Shown here one piece after another: positions 1-42,119 of a stretch of 64,000 nucleotides of DNA. Numbering within the stretch: the stretch's first letter is position 1; each line of letters begins with the position of its first letter. The notes below the pieces were generated by a model. It saw only the letters and a list, made by a program, of their open reading frames with translations, did no database searches and was not told the origin of the DNA. The DNA is from Clostridia bacterium. GTDB taxonomy: Bacteria; Bacillota; Clostridia; UBA1212. Location: contig JAZPZG010000081.1 of assembly GCA_045544575.1 (NCBI GenBank), positions 578 to 64,577 on the forward strand, written 5' to 3'. The position numbers and the translations under genes were made by a program.

Positions 1-738
1 CCCGGCGGTGAGAACATGTACCTTACAAGCGGTTCGGGAACTCCCGGTCAAACCGTTACTATAGGCTGGTTTGCTTCAGGCTTTGACGCAAACATCTTAG
101 GTGTTCAGTTGAATCTTAAGGCCCCTGAGGGTATCACTTTCGTAGGTTATACGCTTGGAACTGTGTCTGGAATAACTGACGGAACAAACTGTGCTACTGA
201 TAAATTCATTGGTATGGCTGATGCAGAGGAGGTTATTGACATTAACGGTAATGTTATGGCAATTACGCTCTTAATCGGAGAGGACGTTGCTCCCGGAACT
301 TATGATTTGATCATCGAAGTTATGATGGCAAGTGACGTAGACCTTAATGAGTTCCATTTCGCTGATGGTGCATCTGCTTCAATTACCGTAGTCAATGCTA
401 CGGCTGCACCTACAACAGCACCTACGACAGCTCCTACAACAGCACCTACGACGGCTCCTACAACGGCGCCCACGGCAGCACCTACAGAGACTCCCACAGA
501 AGCACCTACAGATGCTCCTTCGGATGACTATATGATTGGTGACGTAACAGGCGACGGCAAGGTTAATATGGCAGACGTTGTTGCTATCAGAAGATTCCTT
601 GTTAATCCGAATACCTATCCTTTGAAGGTTGAGGATGCAGGTGACGTAACAGGCGACGGCAAGATTAATATGGCAGACGTTGTTGCCATCAGAAGATATC
701 TTGTCAATGCAGAAACATATCCTCTTAAAAAATCTTAA
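1..738 (+). CDS. Dockerin type I domain-containing protein (5' partial; TAPT-repeat linker followed by duplicated Ca-binding dockerin segments)
   Basis: Frame 1 is open from nt 1, so the gene starts upstream of the window. A (TAPT)n linker sits at about aa 130-160. Two nearly identical 22-aa segments, GDVTGDGKVNMADVVAIRRFLV and GDVTGDGKINMADVVAIRRYLV, form the duplicated F-hand pattern typical of clostridial/ruminococcal type I dockerins. Confidence 0.7.
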   Translation, partial: PGGENMYLTSGSGTPGQTVTIGWFASGFDANILGVQLNLKAPEGITFVGYTLGTVSGITDGTNCATDKFIGMADAEEVIDINGNVMAITLLIGEDVAPGTYDLIIEVMMASDVDLNEFHFADGASASITVVNATAAPTTAPTTAPTTAPTTAPTTAPTAAPTETPTEAPTDAPSDDYMIGDVTGDGKVNMADVVAIRRFLVNPNTYPLKVEDAGDVTGDGKINMADVVAIRRYLVNAETYPLKKS

Positions 739-3400: not shown

Positions 3401-3604
3401 ATGGCAAAATGCGAAGTTTGTTCCAAGGATATGATGTTTGGTCGTCATATTAGCATTACTCGTTCGCAGGTCAGCAGACGTGCTAAGAGAAATTGGAAAG
3501 TAAATGTTAGACGCGTTAAGATTGTTGATTCCAAGGGTGCGGCAAGATACGCATACGTATGCACTTCTTGTCTCAGATCCGGCAAGGTTACAAGAGCCGT
3601 ATAA
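3401..3604 (+). CDS. rpmB: 50S ribosomal protein L28
   Basis: MAKCEVCSKDMMFGRHISITRSQVSRRAKRNWKVNVRRVKIVDSKGAARYAYVCTSCLRSGKV is a canonical L28 sequence. RBS GGGAGG. Confidence 0.9.
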   Translation: MAKCEVCSKDMMFGRHISITRSQVSRRAKRNWKVNVRRVKIVDSKGAARYAYVCTSCLRSGKVTRAV

Positions 3605-3744
3605 GCCTTCTTTTACTGTTCGATCAGCCGGCTTCCGTTTGGTTGAAAAGTTAAGGCTGCGCACAGCGCGGAATATGGCCGCGGCGGTCGGGTTTTTTGG
3701 CAATGAATCATCAGCCCAAGAGCTGTTGCGATTTTAAACGTTTA

Positions 3745-3796
3745 AAAGCGAGCAGGACAGGTAAGTTTATCTTATCTGTCCTGCTCGCTTTTTATT
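3745..3796. terminator. Bidirectional rho-independent terminator (perfect 16-bp stem)
   Basis: AAAGCGAGCAGGACAG...CTGTCCTGCTCGCTTT with T-runs on both strands. It lies between convergent rpmB (+) and the recG stop (-). Confidence 0.75.
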
Positions 3797-6700
3797 ACAA
3801 ATTAATAAGCTCCGGTGTCTTTCCGACAACATATCTGTAATATTGTTCATACTCATTATTTTCTTCTGATGAAAGAGTAGAGACAATTTCCTTTGCTGCT
3901 GATTGTGCTTCTTTAAGCGTATCAATGTCGTCATAGAGGTTTGCAAGCTTAAAGGTGGGCAGTCCGTGCTGTGCTGTTCCGAACAGTTCTCCGGGTCCTC
4001 TCAATTCAAGGTCTTTTTCGGAAATTTCAAATCCGTCTGTCGTAGAACACAATAGCTTTATTCTCTCCTGTGCGATTTCTGCCTTTGAATCACTTATTAA
4101 AGTGCAGTGTGATTGCTTAGCGCCTCTTCCGACACGTCCGCGTAACTGGTGAAGCTGTGATAGCCCGAATCGCTCTGCGTTTTCAATTACCATTATCGTG
4201 GCATTCGGTACGTCTACGCCAACCTCGATTACAGTCGTAGAAAAGAGTACGGATATTTCCCCTGCAGCAAAACGCCGCATTACAGCTTCCTTTTCTGCGG
4301 GCTTCATTTTGCCGTGAAGCAAGCCCGTTGTGATATCCGAAAATACCGTGCGGGATAATTTTTCATAATTTGAAACGGCTGAAATTGCACCGGGAAGAGA
4401 AGTATCCTCTGAAGCTTCTTCTTTATCCTCTACGAGAGGGTGTACTATATACGCCTGAAATCCGCTGCGTGCATTTGCGGCAACCCAATTGTAGACACGA
4501 TTACGCATCTCGCCCGTAGCAGGGTAGGTTTTTATGGGAAGTCTTCCGGTAGGCAGTGTGTCAAGCGTTGAGATATCAAGGTCTCCGTACAAAATGAGTG
4601 CAAGCGTTCTCGGGATAGGAGTTGCAGTCATTACAAGAATATCGGGAGTTACAGAGCTTAGCTCCGAAAGCATTGCACGCTGGCGAACACCGAAACGGTG
4701 CTGTTCATCGGTAATAACTATTCCTGCCTTGTGAAAACGGACGTCCTTTTGAATAAGTGCGTGAGTTCCGATAATGCAGTCAATTTCTCCTTTTGCAATT
4801 TTATCATGTATTTTGCGTTTGTTTGCAGATGTCAGGGCTCCTGTAAGAAGTCCTACGCGTATCCCGAATGGCTCTAACACTTTTTTGATGTTCCGGGCGT
4901 GCTGTTCAGCCAGAATTTCCGTCGGCGCCATGTATACCGCCTGGTATCCGTTTTTTATTGCCTTGTACATTGCCGCAACTGCAACAATGGTTTTTCCCGA
5001 ACCCACGTCACCTATGACAAGCCGATTCATTATTTTGGGGCTCTCCATGTCACTAAAAATATCGCTGATAACTTTTTGTTGTCCGTCCGTAAGCTTGTAT
5101 GGCAATGAACCGTAAAAATCTGTCATATCGACTTGACTAAAACGTATGCCATTAGATGAGGCACTTATCTCAACACTGCTTTTCATATGGAAGAGCATAA
5201 GCTGTAATTCGATAAGCTCGTCGAAAACAATGCGCTTGTGGGCCTTTTCTGCGGCTTTTTTATCGGAAGGGAAGTGAATGTGCCTTTTTGCAGCTTCCCT
5301 GCCAATTAAGCCGTAGGAGTCTCTGATTTTGAGCGGTATTTCACAGATATGGGCCTTTTTCTCTGCACTTACCTTTGAAAGACTGTCTTCTATTCTGATT
5401 GCGGCAGTTACTGCATCTCGTATTACTGACTGTGTCAATCCCTTTGTCAATGGATATATGGGGAGCAGTCTTTCAAAATTTGCAACTTTTAAAGCATCTG
5501 AAGCGTCTGTAAAAGCAGGGTTTAAAAGCTGTAATTGTTTACCGCCCGAAAAGCCGTCTGCCGATATTCTTCCGTAAAAAAGATAATCGCCGCCTACGTT
5601 TATTACACGCTTTACGTAGTCCTGATTGTAAAACGTTATTTTTATACTTCCCGTTGAGTCTTTTCCCGTAAAGAATGTGGCGGTAAGGCCTCTTCTAAGC
5701 ATTCTTGATGCTTTGCTTGTAATTCGGACAAGTACCGTGGCATCCGTATTCGGGATAAGCTCCGATATTGAGGTGCGTTTACTTCTGTCCTCGTATCTGG
5801 CAGGGTAGAGCTCCAATAAATCTCTGATTTTTTGTACTCCGAGCTTTGCAAAAAGCGCCGCTCTTGCATTTTTTATTCCGGGAAGCGTTGTAATGTCTTC
5901 GTCAAGCGGAGACTTTTTTTGTATGACATCAGTTTTTTTTTCTTCACAAGGCTCTTGATTAACGCTTTCGGAAGAACTTTTAAGCGTGCCTGCAACGACT
6001 CTTTCTATGTTTCCGAAGTCTTTAATTATCTTTATGTCGGTAAAGCCTGACTTTTCGAGAAGCTCGGCTACGTCGCGTGCTTGGTTTATTCCTACTTCAT
6101 ACATGAGAACACCGCCGTCGTTTAAACAGTGCGGGGCGTTTTCGGTAATTATGCGGTATGCGGAAAGGCCGTCGCTTCCGCCGTCAAGTGCGAGGTGCGG
6201 CTCATGGTCTTTTACGTTAACATCAAGCCCCTTTATGTCATCTGTGGGAATATACGGAGGATTTGACACGATAATATCAAACTTCTCACCGGGCTTGACG
6301 CTTTCGAGAAAATTGCCGCAGAGAAAATTGACCTTATCGTAAGAACCAAGTATGTTTTTACAGTTTTCCATAGCAATACTGAGTGCTTCGTGCGAAATAT
6401 CACTGCACGTGACGTCAGCCTCTGAAAGACTGTGCTTTGCGGAAATGCCGATACAGCCGCTTCCGCAACACAAATCAAGGATTTTGGGAGCTTTTTTGAC
6501 TTCTTTAGCTGTTTTTATTAATTCTTCAACAAGAATTTCTGTATCTCCGCGGGGAATTAAAACGGCGGGTGTAACCTTAAATTTAAGACCGTAAAAATCA
6601 GCCGTGCCGAGAATATATTGTATCGGCTCACCCTTGCAAAGTCGTATTACGGCAGAGGTAAATTCAGCAGATTTTTCCTGCACGGCTTCATCGGTATTAT

Positions 6701-6863
6701 CTATAACGAAGTCCGCGTTGGTCATTATAAAAAGACGGGAAACCTCGAAAAAATGCATAAGCAGCATATCGCAAAGCAGCATCGAAGAATCAATGCCGTT
6801 TGATTTCAGCTTACCTATGGTGTTTTTTCTAAGTTCCCCTAAAGTGATGTTATCCATAATCAA
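3795..6863 (-). CDS. recG: In-frame fusion of release-factor glutamine N5-methyltransferase PrmC/HemK (N-terminal) to ATP-dependent DNA helicase RecG (C-terminal)
   Basis: Residues about 1-295 carry the PrmC hallmarks: LDLCCGSGCIG (SAM-binding site), the NPPY motif in IVSNPPYIP, and DGG. From about aa 330 the RecG N-terminus LPGIKNARAALFAKLGVQKIRDLLELYPARYED follows, then the wedge domain, helicase motifs GDVGSGKT and DEQHRFG, and the C-terminal TRG region. No stop codon or internal ATG separates the two parts. Confidence 0.85.
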   Translation of the reverse strand: MIMDNITLGELRKNTIGKLKSNGIDSSMLLCDMLLMHFFEVSRLFIMTNADFVIDNTDEAVQEKSAEFTSAVIRLCKGEPIQYILGTADFYGLKFKVTPAVLIPRGDTEILVEELIKTAKEVKKAPKILDLCCGSGCIGISAKHSLSEADVTCSDISHEALSIAMENCKNILGSYDKVNFLCGNFLESVKPGEKFDIIVSNPPYIPTDDIKGLDVNVKDHEPHLALDGGSDGLSAYRIITENAPHCLNDGGVLMYEVGINQARDVAELLEKSGFTDIKIIKDFGNIERVVAGTLKSSSESVNQEPCEEKKTDVIQKKSPLDEDITTLPGIKNARAALFAKLGVQKIRDLLELYPARYEDRSKRTSISELIPNTDATVLVRITSKASRMLRRGLTATFFTGKDSTGSIKITFYNQDYVKRVINVGGDYLFYGRISADGFSGGKQLQLLNPAFTDASDALKVANFERLLPIYPLTKGLTQSVIRDAVTAAIRIEDSLSKVSAEKKAHICEIPLKIRDSYGLIGREAAKRHIHFPSDKKAAEKAHKRIVFDELIELQLMLFHMKSSVEISASSNGIRFSQVDMTDFYGSLPYKLTDGQQKVISDIFSDMESPKIMNRLVIGDVGSGKTIVAVAAMYKAIKNGYQAVYMAPTEILAEQHARNIKKVLEPFGIRVGLLTGALTSANKRKIHDKIAKGEIDCIIGTHALIQKDVRFHKAGIVITDEQHRFGVRQRAMLSELSSVTPDILVMTATPIPRTLALILYGDLDISTLDTLPTGRLPIKTYPATGEMRNRVYNWVAANARSGFQAYIVHPLVEDKEEASEDTSLPGAISAVSNYEKLSRTVFSDITTGLLHGKMKPAEKEAVMRRFAAGEISVLFSTTVIEVGVDVPNATIMVIENAERFGLSQLHQLRGRVGRGAKQSHCTLISDSKAEIAQERIKLLCSTTDGFEISEKDLELRGPGELFGTAQHGLPTFKLANLYDDIDTLKEAQSAAKEIVSTLSSEENNEYEQYYRYVVGKTPELINL

Positions 6864-6871
6864 TTTAAATT

Positions 6872-7933
6872 TCAGTTTTCACTTTCAATTGCAGTCTCAG
6901 ACTCTGTCGCTGCCTCTGTTTCGGCTTCGGTCTGCTTTGCACCGTAGTCAGGTGCCTCGTCAAGAGAAAGTGCTTCGTTAAGAGCGGTGATTGCAACCTC
7001 TATCATGTCGTCCGTAGGCTCTTTGGTGGTAAATCTTTGCATAGCCATTCCGGGCGCGCGCAGGATGTCTACGAATTTGTTTTCATGCCTGCTTGCAAAG
7101 CGGTTAAATTCGTAAGCAATTCCGGCAATTACGGGAAGCGTTACGAGTCTCATTAAAATGTTAAGCCACACACCGAGGTCGGGGAGCAGACAATGAACAA
7201 GTATGCTGATAATCATTACCACGAAAAGAAACGCCGTTCCGCAACGGGGATGGTGCTTCGAGTATTTACGCACGTTCTCCACCGTAAGCTCGTCAAAGTG
7301 CTCGTAGCAATGTATAGTTTTATGTTCTGCACCATGATACATGAATACACGCTTGATATCCTTCATCTGTGAAACTGCAAGCATATAGAGCAGAAATATG
7401 GTGAAACGCGAAATTCCCTCAACGGTATTAAACGCCACGGTATTCATCGTGATATGAAAGAGTCCGAGTAATGCTTTTATACCGGAAGAAATTAACTGCG
7501 GGAGAATAAAGAAAAGTGTAACGGAGAGCACCACTGCAAGTACAAGTGATATTCCCATGAAAAACTTCATAGCCTTTTCTCCCAGGTGCTTTTCTATCCA
7601 CAAATCAAATTTCGTGGGTGTATATGCAGGGTCGTCTTCCGTTGCGCTTATCTCGGCTGAATTAAATAAAGCCTTTGTACCGACTATAAGAGAGTCTAAG
7701 AGCCTTACTGTACCTCTTACCATCGGAAGCTCTAAAAACCAATTTCCGGAGCCGAGAGCTGCTTGTCTTTTCTTTTCTATGGAAAGCTCGCCGGAAGGAG
7801 TTCTTACTACCTGTGCATAGCCGTTGGGCGCGCGCATCATGATTCCCTCAAGCAGTGCCTCTCCGCCTACGCTGCAAACTCTCTGCTTCTCGCAAGCCTG
7901 TTTTTTTTCGTTGTTCTTTCGTGTCATAAACAA
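6872..7933 (-). CDS. DUF1385 (YqhQ-like) membrane protein with acidic C-terminal tail
   Basis: The N-terminal VGGEALLEGIMMRAPNG motif matches DUF1385. Several transmembrane helices. C-terminal TEAETEAATESETAIESEN tail. Confidence 0.55.
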   Translation of the reverse strand: MFMTRKNNEKKQACEKQRVCSVGGEALLEGIMMRAPNGYAQVVRTPSGELSIEKKRQAALGSGNWFLELPMVRGTVRLLDSLIVGTKALFNSAEISATEDDPAYTPTKFDLWIEKHLGEKAMKFFMGISLVLAVVLSVTLFFILPQLISSGIKALLGLFHITMNTVAFNTVEGISRFTIFLLYMLAVSQMKDIKRVFMYHGAEHKTIHCYEHFDELTVENVRKYSKHHPRCGTAFLFVVMIISILVHCLLPDLGVWLNILMRLVTLPVIAGIAYEFNRFASRHENKFVDILRAPGMAMQRFTTKEPTDDMIEVAITALNEALSLDEAPDYGAKQTEAETEAATESETAIESEN

Positions 7934-8644: not shown

Positions 8645-10726
8645 ATGAATATGTTTGATACGGTTTGGAAATTAGCGGACAGAGGAGAAGATGCCACGCT
8701 TGCAGGTTGTGAAAACGATGTTGTAAGGCGTGTCTTGCATTCGCGCGGTATTGTCGATGAGTGCGAGGTGTCAGCTTTCATTAATCCGACTTTGTCAAAT
8801 ATGTCAGACCCTTTTTTGTTGCCTGATATGGCTGCTGCGGTTGAGAGAATTCTTGCTGCCGCAGATTCGGGTGAGCACATTACGATTTTCGGAGATTATG
8901 ATGCTGACGGCGTTACAGCCACGGCAATATTATATAATTTTTTAACGGTGTATTTAGAGGCGGACGTCGATTATTTGCTTCCCAGCAGATTCGGAGACGG
9001 CTACGGATTGTCGAAAAAGACCGTTGACACCATAAAATCACGCGGAACGAGCCTTATTATCACCGTAGATACCGGTATTGTCGCTTTTGCGGAAATAGAA
9101 TATGCTTCGAGCCTAGGAATAGACGTTGTTGTGACGGATCACCACAACTGCGCTGAAAAGCTGCCTGATTGCTGTGCGGTTGTAGACCCGATGAGAGAAG
9201 ACAGCTCTTTCCCCACAAAACAGCTTGCAGGCGCGGGTGTTGCTTTTAAGGTGGCGGAAGCTATTGCATACACCATAGGTGTTGAAGACGTAAGCGTTTA
9301 TCTTCCTATTGCGGCAATCGGAACGGTGGGAGATTCAATGCCTCTTACGGGCGAGAACCGTATTATCGTTAAAAACGGACTGCTTCTTGCGGAAGAAAGC
9401 TTGCCGGGAGTAAGACTTGCGACAGACAGTGCCCGCTCAAAGGACGGTATTCTTACCGCAAGGGCGGTTGCTTTCGGAATTGTTCCTAAAATCAATGCGG
9501 CAGGACGCATGGGAGATGCGGAGCTTGCATTAAAGCTTTTGCTTTCTGAGGATGCGGAAACGGCAGAAGAAATACTCAATAGGTTAAATGAACTTAACAC
9601 TCTACGCCAGCATACGGAAAGTGAAATTACTGCACAGGCAACATCGCCGGAACATATGCTTACACGGGATACAGACTTTATTACAGCTGTAGCGGGAGAA
9701 GATTGGCATCATGGTGTTACCGGAATCGTTGCATCAAAGCTCGTTGAAAAATACGGCAAGCCTGCAATCGTTCTTTCGGGAAGAGAAACCGATGATGAGG
9801 ACAACGTATACATGCGAGGCTCAGCGAGGTCTGTTGACGGAATAAATATATATGAAGCACTGCTTTGCGGCTCTGAGCTTATGTGCAAATTCGGAGGCCA
9901 TGAGATGGCAGCGGGCTTTACGGTAGCCGTTAATAACATTGAAAAGCTTTTGGAACTCACCGGTAAAGACGTTGCAAGACAGCGAAGCGAAACGAGATAC
10001 TTTTTGCCCAAAAGCATAGATTGTTATCTGCCGCAGGAGATGCTGACCGTTGAAACTGCCGAACGTGTGGAAAGCATGGGCCCTTTCGGTGTAGGGAATC
10101 CGATGCCCGTATTTATTACGGACGGTTTTAAGTTTGTGCGTTCAAATGCCGTAGGCGAAACAAAGAAACACCTGAAATTCAGATTTGCGGGAAACCCTGA
10201 ATGTCTAAACGGCGGCATAGCCGAAGGTATAGCCTTTAATACTGCTGTCTATAATAAAATGGTAAACAGCATAGAAGGCTGTGCATGTGTGTACAGCCTC
10301 GGCGTAAATGAGTGGCAGGGTGTGAGAAGTGTATCACTTAACGTAATTGATATAATAGATAATGAATATTTTGTTGCGAAAAAGGTTCAATCAGTGTACA
10401 ATGAAAATGTCGCTGATTGCATTGAGCGTATAAATGAATCGTTTTCTTTTACCAGAGATGAATTGGTTGCTTTTTACAGAGCACTTCAGCAGTCCGGTAA
10501 TCGATTTGTTTTCGACACTCTTTATGAAGTAAAGGCATCTCTTAAGGCCGCAGGCATTGACTTGCCATGGTTTAAGATAAGATACGGTCTGGAGGTTTTT
10601 AAGGAGCTTGGATTCATAAAGAAAGAAGCAAAGGGCAGTTACTGTTTTATGACTGACGGTAACGGAACTGCCCAAAAAAGAAATCTCAACGATTCAAAAC
10701 TTTTTAATGAATTGAAGCGAAGCTGA
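8645..10726 (+). CDS. recJ: Single-stranded-DNA-specific exonuclease RecJ
   Basis: DHH motifs (ITIFGDYDADGVTATAIL, VVTDHHN) and a DHHA1 region. 693 aa, and recJ-relA-dtd synteny. Confidence 0.9.
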   Translation: MNMFDTVWKLADRGEDATLAGCENDVVRRVLHSRGIVDECEVSAFINPTLSNMSDPFLLPDMAAAVERILAAADSGEHITIFGDYDADGVTATAILYNFLTVYLEADVDYLLPSRFGDGYGLSKKTVDTIKSRGTSLIITVDTGIVAFAEIEYASSLGIDVVVTDHHNCAEKLPDCCAVVDPMREDSSFPTKQLAGAGVAFKVAEAIAYTIGVEDVSVYLPIAAIGTVGDSMPLTGENRIIVKNGLLLAEESLPGVRLATDSARSKDGILTARAVAFGIVPKINAAGRMGDAELALKLLLSEDAETAEEILNRLNELNTLRQHTESEITAQATSPEHMLTRDTDFITAVAGEDWHHGVTGIVASKLVEKYGKPAIVLSGRETDDEDNVYMRGSARSVDGINIYEALLCGSELMCKFGGHEMAAGFTVAVNNIEKLLELTGKDVARQRSETRYFLPKSIDCYLPQEMLTVETAERVESMGPFGVGNPMPVFITDGFKFVRSNAVGETKKHLKFRFAGNPECLNGGIAEGIAFNTAVYNKMVNSIEGCACVYSLGVNEWQGVRSVSLNVIDIIDNEYFVAKKVQSVYNENVADCIERINESFSFTRDELVAFYRALQQSGNRFVFDTLYEVKASLKAAGIDLPWFKIRYGLEVFKELGFIKKEAKGSYCFMTDGNGTAQKRNLNDSKLFNELKRS

Positions 10727-10740
10727 CGTGGGGTGGCAGG

Positions 10741-12972
10741 ATGACAGAGGAAAATATAAACGAAATTAATACAGCAAACGTCAAGAAAATAATGGAGATT
10801 GCAAAACGAAATTATCCGAACGCAAACGTTGACAAGATATGGCGTGCTTTTCTTGTTGCGGATACCATGCATAGAGGACAGCTGAGGCAGTCGGGAGAGC
10901 CGTTTATAATTCATCCGATTGCGGTCGCGGGGATGCTTGCCGATATGGAGATGGACGTGAACTGCATTACTGCGGGTATGCTTCATGACGTGGTAGAGGA
11001 TACCTCCATGACGTATGATGACGTTCAGGCGGAATTCGGTGCGGAAATTGCCAATCTGGTGGACGGCGCTACAAAGCTTAAAAGAATAGGCGATACCACA
11101 AAGGAAGAGCAGCAGGCTGAAAACCTCCGTAAAATGTTCCTTGCTATTGCAGAGGACATGAGAGTTATAGTAATAAAGCTTGTTGACAGACTTCACAATA
11201 TGCGTACTCTCCAGTACGTAAATACGGATAAACAAAGAAAAAAAGCTCAGGAAACACTTGATATATATACTCCTCTTGCACACCGATTCGGAATGTCAAG
11301 AATCAAATGGGAGCTTGAGGACCTTTGTTTTAAGTATCTTGAGCCGGAAAATTATGCATCTCTTGCATCTCAGCTTAGTCAGAAACGCTCAGAGCGTGAA
11401 GAATATATAAAAAATATTATTTCTACGGTTAAGACCGCAATAGAAGCGGAGGGTTTTGACGCACACCTCGACGGAAGACCCAAGCATCTTTACAGCATAA
11501 AGAAAAAAATGGAACGCCAACACAAGCAGCTTGATCAGATATACGATCTCCTTGCCATTCGTGTTATCGTGGAAAACGTGGCGCAGTGTTACCGTGTATT
11601 GGGAATTATCCACCAGCTGTACACACCTGTTCCGCAGAGGTTTAAGGACTATATTGCAACTCCCAAGCCCAACATGTACCAATCAATTCATACAACCGTT
11701 ATAGGACACGGCGGAATTGCATTTGAAGCGCAGATAAGAACCTGGGATATGCACAATGCGGCAGAACTCGGTATTGCGGCACATTGGCGCTATAAAGAGG
11801 GCGGAAAAGAGGGCCATGATGAAAACGAGGCAAAGAAGTTTGAGTGGGTGCGAAAGCTTTTTGACGTACAAAAGGATATGGACACCACGGACAGCTTTAT
11901 GGAAGCGTTCAAAATGGACCTTTTTACGGACGAGGTTTTTGTGTTTACGCCGAAAGGAGACGTGAAATCTCTGCCTGCAGGCTCTAATCCCATAGATTTT
12001 GCTTATGCAATACATAGCGGCGTAGGACACAAAATGGTAGGAGCACGTGTTAACGGTGAATTAAAACCGCTTGACTACTGCCTGCAAACAGGCGATATGG
12101 TGCAGATTCTTACGTCTAATTCTCCCAACAGAGCACCCAGTCGAGATTGGCTCAAAATGGTAAAAAGCTCTGAGGCGCGTACGAAGCTCCGCCAGTGGTT
12201 TAAGAATGAGTGCCGAGACGAAAATATTGAGGTCGGCAGAGATATGCTCGACAAGGAACTGAAACGTCAAGGATATACTTATTCGCAGCTTTTCGGTGAC
12301 GAAGAAATAATTGAGAGCTTCCTGCACAGAAATAATCTTCGTTCGATCGAGGACTTGATGAATATTATAGGCTTCGGTGATATGACGGCTCAAAAGGCAG
12401 TGTCGAGGCTTAAAGATTTGTATATAAAGAAGCACGCAGAAAGCGGTGCAAGAGATGATGACTTCATAAAAAAGCTCATTGACGATAAAGCCGCTAAGTC
12501 TGTGGAAAAGCCTTCGGCAGAGGGAATAATAGTAAAGGGCGTTGACAATTGTCTTGTACACCTTGCGAGATGCTGTAATCCCGTGCCGGGTGATGCCATT
12601 GTGGGTTATACCACGCGTGCAAGAGGTGTTTCTGTACACAGAAGGGACTGCCCTAACGTAATTGCGATGAAGCGCGATGAGGCAAACCGCATTATTGACG
12701 TAAGGTGGGCATCGGGAGCATCTTCCTTCCGTCCGCATCCCGCTGAAGTGGTTATCGAAGCTATTGATAACGGAAGAATGCTTATTGCCGTGGCAAATAT
12801 TATTAACGAGATGTGTATAAAAATGACTTCAATCAATTCAAGAAGCACAAGAGATAATTATCTTATAATACACCTTGTCGTGCAGATTACAGACCGCCTG
12901 GCATTAGACAAATTGATTGATAAGCTTGCAAGTGTAGAAGGAGTTGTGCAGGTAACTCGAAAGATTATTTGA
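10741..12972 (+). CDS. relA: Bifunctional (p)ppGpp synthetase/hydrolase RelA/SpoT
   Basis: HD domain (HRGQLRQSGEPFIIHPIAVA), synthetase domain (DLLAIRVIV...YQSIHT), then TGS and ACT C-terminal domains. 743 aa. Confidence 0.9.
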   Translation: MTEENINEINTANVKKIMEIAKRNYPNANVDKIWRAFLVADTMHRGQLRQSGEPFIIHPIAVAGMLADMEMDVNCITAGMLHDVVEDTSMTYDDVQAEFGAEIANLVDGATKLKRIGDTTKEEQQAENLRKMFLAIAEDMRVIVIKLVDRLHNMRTLQYVNTDKQRKKAQETLDIYTPLAHRFGMSRIKWELEDLCFKYLEPENYASLASQLSQKRSEREEYIKNIISTVKTAIEAEGFDAHLDGRPKHLYSIKKKMERQHKQLDQIYDLLAIRVIVENVAQCYRVLGIIHQLYTPVPQRFKDYIATPKPNMYQSIHTTVIGHGGIAFEAQIRTWDMHNAAELGIAAHWRYKEGGKEGHDENEAKKFEWVRKLFDVQKDMDTTDSFMEAFKMDLFTDEVFVFTPKGDVKSLPAGSNPIDFAYAIHSGVGHKMVGARVNGELKPLDYCLQTGDMVQILTSNSPNRAPSRDWLKMVKSSEARTKLRQWFKNECRDENIEVGRDMLDKELKRQGYTYSQLFGDEEIIESFLHRNNLRSIEDLMNIIGFGDMTAQKAVSRLKDLYIKKHAESGARDDDFIKKLIDDKAAKSVEKPSAEGIIVKGVDNCLVHLARCCNPVPGDAIVGYTTRARGVSVHRRDCPNVIAMKRDEANRIIDVRWASGASSFRPHPAEVVIEAIDNGRMLIAVANIINEMCIKMTSINSRSTRDNYLIIHLVVQITDRLALDKLIDKLASVEGVVQVTRKII

Positions 12973-41963: not shown

Positions 41964-41984
41964 TTTTTTTAATATTACTGTTTT

Positions 41985-42110
41985 AGGAGAGGTGAAATTC
42001 CTCATCGGCGGTGAAGGGCGCAGTTGACGTCATAAGTCCGAGGGCCGTATAAGGGGCAGACAGGGTGAGATTCCCTGACCGACGGTACAGTCCGGAGAAA
42101 GGAACGGAGG
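41985..42110 (+). promoter_or_regulatory. FMN riboswitch (RFN element)
   Basis: GGTGAAATTCC...CGGCGGT in the 5' half. In the 3' half, GGGGCAG.GGGTGAGATTCCC..ACCGACGGTACAGTCCGGAGAAAGGA closely matches the conserved RFN 3' core (CCGACAGTATAGTCTGGATGGGAGAAGGA). The downstream gene is an ECF S-component. The RBS GGAACGGAGG lies inside the 3' end of the element. Confidence 0.7.
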
Positions 42111-42119
42111 TATTACGTT

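Follow-up and report, generated by a model that had tools for sequence, protein, structure and literature searches.

Whether two complete enzymes encoded in one uninterrupted reading frame are the product of a single gene, or of two genes made to look like one by a sequencing error, is the question raised by a 64-kb stretch of the Clostridia bacterium contig JAZPZG010000081.1 (the window, by which we mean the whole stretch analysed; 42.9% G+C). One open reading frame (ORF) in it encodes the release-factor glutamine methyltransferase PrmC (HemK) and continues in frame into the branched-DNA helicase RecG, and two runs of A lie at the junction of the two. A first-pass annotation, made from the letters alone, left the choice between a genuine and unusual bifunctional protein and two genes whose boundary is hidden by a homopolymer error. 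We conclude, with a probability of roughly 85%, that the locus is a genuine gene fusion of old date, shared by a clade of uncultured Clostridia that come largely from ruminant guts, and that it encodes a bifunctional two-module protein. The architecture, its conservation and synteny, the intact motifs and the predicted disorder of the linker were read directly; the order of events, both enzymatic activities and the independence of the modules are inferred from them.

Two complete enzymes in one reading frame

The six-frame ORF list gives positions 3795..6863 on the minus strand as a single uninterrupted ORF of 1022 codons from a TTG, as the first-pass annotation had described it. The gene itself is trimmed to 1020 codons from an ATG. 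We take the ATG at 6857, codon 3 of the listed ORF, as the start because MDNI or MEKI opens the deposited protein (P0001, 1020 aa) and every homologue; judged by these N-termini it is almost certainly the true start, and the TTG at 6861-6863 is probably unused. The gene and its parts are as follows.

3795..6857, minus strand: prmC-recG fusion coding sequence, 1020 codons plus a stop at 3795-3797, with the ATG at 6855-6857
5994..6857, minus strand: PrmC/HemK module, aa 1-288, PrmC_N helical domain and class I S-adenosylmethionine (SAM) methyltransferase domain
6447..6476, minus strand: SAM-binding motif DLCCGSGCIG, from motif reading
6252..6263, minus strand: NPPY, the N5-glutamine methyltransferase catalytic motif, from motif reading
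5886..5993, minus strand: linker, aa 289-324, 36 aa (AGTLKSSSESVNQEPCEEKKTDVIQKKSPLDEDITT), rich in K, E, S and T and poorly conserved
5922..5966, minus strand: tether core, aa 298-312, predicted disordered, with an AlphaFold predicted local distance difference test score (pLDDT) below 50
3798..5885, minus strand: RecG module, aa 325-1020, N-terminal helix-hairpin LPGIKNARAALFAKLGV, wedge/OB, two RecA-like helicase domains and C-terminal domain 3
4989..5012, minus strand: Walker A motif GDVGSGKT, from motif reading
4689..4709, minus strand: Walker B (motif II) DEQHRFG, from motif reading
3978..4001, minus strand: core of the TRG (translocation in RecG) motif, RGPGELFG, from motif reading

Both halves score above the cut-offs of NCBIfam equivalog models, which bears out the earlier description of a complete PrmC followed by a complete RecG. 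The PrmC half matches TIGR03534 at 273.6 bits (cut-off 199.1) over aa 47-290 and profile positions 12-252 of 253; Pfam places PrmC_N (PF17827) at aa 10-86 (E = 3.1e-10) and also reports the MTS domain PF05175 (E = 8.6e-15). The module finishes in the family-typical C-terminus KDFGNIERVV, the last conserved PrmC block. In having PrmC_N, the SAM domain, GxGxG and NPPY it resembles the structurally known members of the PrmC/HemK family (Escherichia coli HemK, 2B3T and 1T43; Thermotoga maritima HemK, 1NV8; and 4DZR), and like genes of that family it has DUF1385 as its customary upstream neighbour, but the fusion gene lacks the prmC stop codon and reads on into RecG. On these profile and motif matches, the N-terminal module is predicted to be a complete release-factor Gln-N5 methyltransferase.

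The RecG half begins, after the linker, with the block LPGIKNARAALFAKLGV, the first one conserved in RecG. It exceeds the cut-offs of TIGR00643 (696.4 bits against 659.4, aa 341-990) and of the RecG equivalogs NF008168 (814.8 against 718) and NF008165 (793.5 against 711), and Pfam reports RecG_wedge at aa 329-489 together with DEAD, Helicase_C and RecG_dom3_C. Residues 317-991 align to residues 112-763 of the T. maritima RecG chain in 1GM5 (E = 1e-143); the wedge, the superfamily 2 helicase motifs, TRG and the C-terminal domain are common to the module and T. maritima RecG (see also PDB 9WM0). That protein has an N-terminal extension of its own, about 110 extra residues, and additions at this end are therefore structurally tolerated. 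In the fusion, by contrast, the addition is no RecG-specific extension but a whole PrmC enzyme on a disordered tether. The C-terminal module is accordingly best described as a complete putative RecG branched-DNA translocase. Among other RecG proteins, P0153, P0178, P0199, P0207, P0248 and P0266 (890-940 aa) carry N-terminal extensions of 200-250 aa that have no Pfam match, so that the RecG N-terminus seems to be a frequent spot for added modules.

The linker had been put at about 40 aa; it measures 36 aa, and within it there is, as claimed, no stop codon or internal ATG in frame, nor is there a GTG or TTG. Across the fusion genes no in-frame linker start is conserved, those present in other lineages differing in position, and RecG is therefore presumably produced only within the fusion. 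The AlphaFold2 model, built on a 76-sequence alignment, has a mean pLDDT of 88.6 and a predicted template modelling score of 0.64, and at the junction confidence falls below 50 only at residues 298-312. Both modules are modelled confidently, PrmC with a mean pLDDT over blocks of 10 residues of mostly 78-97. The model fits two folded modules joined by a disordered tether, with a mutual orientation that would not be fixed.

The fusion in related genomes

Comparison with orthologous loci, which could have turned up separate prmC and recG genes with a stop codon at the junction, found the uninterrupted fusion in the relatives instead. In a protein collection clustered at 90%, the nearest homologues are P0002 (1022 aa, 70% identity, 100% coverage, from ENA; 10 cluster members, 3 of them full-length) and P0003 (1063 aa, 64% identity, 100% coverage, from Logan and ENA), whose contigs are referred to here as L001 and L002. 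A junction-centred alignment scan of GTDB species representatives added Clostridia bacterium RGIG8523 (L003), a metagenome-assembled genome (MAG) obtained from the cecum of a water deer and including contig JAGAKK010000023.1, whose P0002-type gene is 99.9% identical to that of L001 and comes from a different sample. Four more fusion clusters, at about 42% identity, came from an exhaustive HMMER scan that covered 1.84 billion representatives of protein clusters: P0121 (1090 aa), P0122 (988 aa), P0123 (1085 aa) and P0194 (a truncated protein of 777 aa that ends after its DEAD helicase domain). Pfam finds the PrmC-type methyltransferase, RecG wedge and DEAD domains in all four, and the P0121 cluster has 21 members, including at least 9 full-length copies of 1090 aa. 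The numbers of fusion lineages are lower bounds, as word-index protein searches missed known members. The alignment and word-index search missed P0121-P0125, which makes its negatives weak; in particular, a word-index search with PrmC plus linker returned only unfused PrmCs of at most 54% identity, a weak negative since it missed the query's own protein too.

Five fusion genes besides that of the window were read as DNA across the junction (L001/L003, L002, L017, L018 and L019); all keep the frame, and their junctions differ in sequence. The G+C content of the fusion genes ranges from 40 to 60% across relatives. All six fusion genes read, that of the window included, keep the SAM motif (DLCCGSGCIG/GSG) and NPPY in the PrmC half and GDVGSGKT, DEQHRFG, T/SATPIPR, QLRGRVGR and the TRG core RGPG(E/D) in the RecG half. 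Linker length varies from 21 to 92 aa among homologues, in steps of whole codons. When the window gene is compared with L001 or L002, the proportion of synonymous differences (pS) is 0.72-0.84, which is saturated, and that of nonsynonymous differences (pN) is 0.19-0.27 in both domains as against 0.45-0.62 in the linker. Low pN at saturated pS indicates that both domains are under strong purifying selection and that the linker is loosely constrained.

The earlier suggestion of a genuine bifunctional protein thus holds as far as the fusion itself is concerned. The fusion is not a peculiarity of this genome, because an entire clade of uncultured Clostridia, most of them known from ruminant guts, is marked by the PrmC-RecG architecture. 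It is a new domain architecture of two well-known enzymes, each half being an ordinary member of its family.

The longest linkers, of about 90 aa in P0121 (aa 292-383; L018) and P0123 (aa 292-382; L019), have a block in common of the form SESDxSF...A..RF/AF, which precedes an Ala/Pro/Lys-rich stretch. This short conserved block may be a small additional element inside the tether.

Gene order and origin of the fusion

The immediate surroundings of the gene in the window are the following.

6872..7933, minus strand: DUF1385 gene, adjoining the fusion on its upstream side, with 14 nt from the DUF1385 stop to the fusion ATG; conserved in this position at each of the six fusion loci read
3401..3604, plus strand: rpmB (ribosomal protein L28), converging on the fusion gene; next gene downstream wherever a fusion locus reaches that far
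3746..3790, unstranded: hairpin (20-bp stem, with A and T runs at its flanks) in the interval where rpmB and the fusion gene converge

The order DUF1385, prmC-recG and convergent rpmB is found in the window, L001, L017, L018 and L019. In L002 DUF1385 likewise precedes the fusion, and the contig ends before the position of rpmB. Beyond rpmB, the three distant loci (L017, L018, L019) have Cthe_2159-metK-clpX-clpP in common, and in the window rpmB is accompanied by DUF2273 and two Asp23 genes. In Bacillus subtilis recG is normally found within a few genes of rpmB and of the Asp23-family gene yloU. Neither the window nor the fetched fusion loci contain a second prmC, a second recG, prfA or any other gene for RF1 or RF2, in contrast to the one unfused relative checked for this, Firmicutes bacterium CAG:882 (L005), where the order is DUF1385-prmC-prfA. 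Another unfused arrangement, DUF1385-prmC-recA with a small ORF, possibly recX, after it, is found in Oscillospiraceae/Ruminococcus MAGs (L008, 4469-7654; L009, 4466-7602), so that here, too, prmC immediately precedes a recombination gene. No transitional state, with prmC adjoining a separate recG, was found in the closest unfused relatives: P0270, the closest unfused RecG, has the context recG-rsmD-coaD, and P0124, from GCA_016282115.1, lies near hrcA-grpE-dnaK.

On the simplest history, DUF1385-prmC would have been placed next to recG in recG's own neighbourhood, so that in the ancestor of the clade recG came to lie directly downstream of DUF1385-prmC, where prfA sits in the unfused L005. 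Subsequent loss of the prmC stop codon would have produced one polypeptide with two independently folding modules and a flexible, fast-evolving tether. The modules most likely act independently, each half keeping its customary job, and the main effect of the fusion would be to fix 1:1 co-expression from one promoter and one start codon, RecG being made only as part of the fusion.

Separate neighbor-joining trees with 200 bootstraps were built for the PrmC halves and the RecG halves. By their PrmC halves, the fused proteins are monophyletic with respect to unfused PrmCs in 143 of 200 replicates, and the RecG halves form a group together with the unfused P0124 in 192 of 200. In light of these trees we regard the two halves as probably co-evolving.

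Several points weigh against the reading of a single old fusion whose halves work separately. Taken alone, the fused RecG halves are monophyletic in 37 of 200 replicates, which is weak support, and the unfused P0124, with its unrelated gene context, stands either as sister to the fused RecG clade or inside it, a choice that neighbor joining leaves open. Later fission or relocation in the P0124 lineage, an error of the tree, or more than one fusion event are possible explanations. That the fusion has been kept for so long may point to a functional link, which modular independence leaves out of account. Finally, the lengths of the A-runs in this strain rest on the assembly and on parsimony with relatives.

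Possible functional coupling of the two halves

The first-pass annotation spoke of a protein that joins translation termination to DNA repair. Physically this is so, in one polypeptide conserved across relatives; a functional joining is another matter, and we consider it unlikely. Such a coupling, of the 'Rosetta stone' kind, would have PrmC direct RecG to its place of action or control it, for instance as a tether to release factors, or to ribosomes terminating where transcription, translation and replication come into conflict. A variant of the same reading, in which the NPPY methyltransferase has gained a substrate related to DNA repair, appears just as doubtful. What makes the idea attractive is that deeply diverged lineages (about 42% identity, saturated pS) have kept the fusion while the linker varies freely, that prmC is followed by recA in some of the Oscillospiraceae/Ruminococcus MAGs, and that no prfA lies near the fusion. 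On the other hand, the PrmC half is an ordinary PrmC equivalog with PrmC_N, and a linker of 21-92 aa that is predicted to be disordered argues against a fixed interface between the domains.

PrmC also fuses readily with other neighbours, with DUF1385 in Clostridium and with TrmB in the NCBIfam model NF002421, which suggests opportunistic fusion of adjacent housekeeping genes. These proteins (about 587 aa in the DUF1385 case) are like the present fusion in that PrmC is in frame with a neighbouring housekeeping gene; they differ from it in partner and position, PrmC being N-terminal here and its partner a DNA helicase. Overall the evidence favours opportunistic fusion of neighbouring housekeeping genes over coupling. 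That the fusion serves either coupling, with PrmC linking RecG to release factors or ribosomes or methylating a repair-related target, or a species-specific, dnaX-like tuning of PrmC to RecG through a PrmC-only isoform, is a proposition to which we attach little probability. As an observation on PrmC itself, DUF1385-PrmC fusions (PF07136 with PrmC_N/MTS) are widespread in Clostridium (P0351-P0386, for example in Clostridium tertium).

The A-runs at the junction

The isoform idea arises from two runs of A in the coding strand of the linker, which had been flagged as possible sites of phase variation, programmed frameshifting or sequencing indels.

5933..5941, minus strand: A9 run (GAA GAA AAA AAA ACT) with an in-phase A_AAA_AAA heptamer; a -1 slip gives ...EEKKN*
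5914..5920, minus strand: A7 run (CAA AAA AAG) with an in-phase A_AAA_AAG heptamer; a -1 slip gives ...KKVSA*

The A9 run lies exactly where it had been reported; the A7 run exists as well, one base away from its reported position of 5913-5919. Apart from A9, no run in the window reaches a length of 9, and with independent bases 1.15 such runs would be expected in its 64 kb. A/T runs of at least 7 number 41 in the window, and A-runs are therefore not unusual in themselves.

Programmed recoding as in dnaX, by transcriptional slippage or a -1 frameshift, would yield a PrmC-only product beside the fusion and so set the ratio of PrmC to RecG. Its appeal lies in the sequence of the runs: at both of them an in-phase heptamer is accompanied by a nearby stop codon, so that, like in dnaX gamma, a -1 shift terminates after 1 codon (A9) or 3 codons (A7), and a product consisting of PrmC only makes biological sense. 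Moreover, a run of nine A residues is long enough for slippage by RNA polymerase in other bacteria. In contrast to dnaX-type sites, which likewise have A_AAA_AAG or A_AAA_AAA in phase and a stop soon after in the -1 frame, the runs of the fusion gene lack conservation, a stimulatory structure and suitable spacing. Of the five other fusion genes none has either run, and these include the relatives that are 70% and 64% identical. Nor is a stimulatory RNA structure predicted 5-9 nt downstream of either run: for the 76 nt around the runs the minimum free energy is -6.3 kcal/mol (z = -0.26, equalled in 80 of 200 shuffles), and the lone hairpin nearby is badly spaced, adjoining A7 without a spacer and lying 19 nt after A9. 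Furthermore, Lys-Lys encoded as AAA AAA or AAA AAG in a genome of 43% G+C yields such heptamers by chance. Because the runs are not conserved and no stimulatory structure is predicted, phase variation and programmed frameshifting find no support, and we judge recoding of this kind improbable. Incidental slippage of RNA polymerase on A9 is possible. On the best reading of the sequence, the A-runs would be species-specific Lys and Glu codons of a low-complexity tether in an A+T-leaning genome, with no conserved role.

A homopolymer error was a reasonable concern, since such runs are typical sites of error and the window sequence by itself could not exclude one missing A. All possible single-base indels in the two runs were simulated. 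With A9 lengthened to A10, PrmC halts immediately (..EEKKN*). With A7 lengthened to A8 the outcome is a neat pair of genes: PrmC ends ..DVIQKKVSA*, and an out-of-frame ATG at 5927-5929 enters the RecG frame, starting MSYKKKSPLDED / MSYKKKSPLDEDITTLPGIK. The closest relatives have neither an ATG at the matching place nor a stop at the junction. That the true sequence is A8 at 5914-5920, or carries an indel in A9, with prmC and recG as separate, slightly overlapping genes, is nevertheless highly improbable: the same frame runs through an uninterrupted junction with no homopolymer of 7 or more in each of the five other fusion genes, whose samples and assemblers are independent, P0194 provides a sixth cluster (as a truncated protein) with the same architecture by Pfam, and the assembled lengths of A9 and A7 are those that reproduce the architecture of the clade. 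The candidate explanation of two genes merged by such an error, raised by the first-pass annotation, is ruled out by uninterrupted fusions at 70%, 64% and about 42% identity. As the relatives share the fused frame, the frame across the A-runs is native, and the gene should be neither split nor flagged as frameshifted.

Implications for annotation

A literature search found no paper on RecG with a PrmC or HemK architecture, and no curated PrmC-RecG model is among the NCBIfam matches listed for the protein, where the sole bifunctional PrmC model is NF002421 (PrmC/TrmB). GenBank already holds fusion proteins, named for one half only: MBO5417286.1 is 'ATP-dependent DNA helicase RecG', and MBO7658201.1 and others are 'peptide chain release factor N(5)-glutamine methyltransferase'. 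Consequently, functional profiles of the MAGs that carry the fusion will miss either an essential-type modifier of translation factors or a core recombination helicase. Recognition of the fusion is useful for annotation, and the fusion is a candidate 'Rosetta stone' that would connect the modification of release factors with repair at replication forks.

Other features of the window

The hairpin at 3746-3790 is likely a bidirectional terminator common to rpmB and the fusion gene. Behind rpmB, at 3676-3690, there is also a smaller hairpin that resembles a terminator, and the interval between rpmB and the fusion also contains a G+C-rich stretch of about 140 nt with no Rfam match. Divergently upstream of DUF1385, at 8645-12972 on the plus strand, lie recJ (DHH/DHHA1/RecJ_OB) and relA/spoT, which places a DNA-repair nuclease gene and a stringent-response synthetase gene beside the fusion operon. 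Farther away, positions 41974-42111 (plus strand) hold a flavin mononucleotide (FMN) riboswitch (RF00050, 78.5 bits, full-length match). An ORF at 16-738 (plus strand) encodes a type I dockerin domain, which hints at an organism with cellulosome-type machinery and fits the ruminant-gut origin of the related MAGs.

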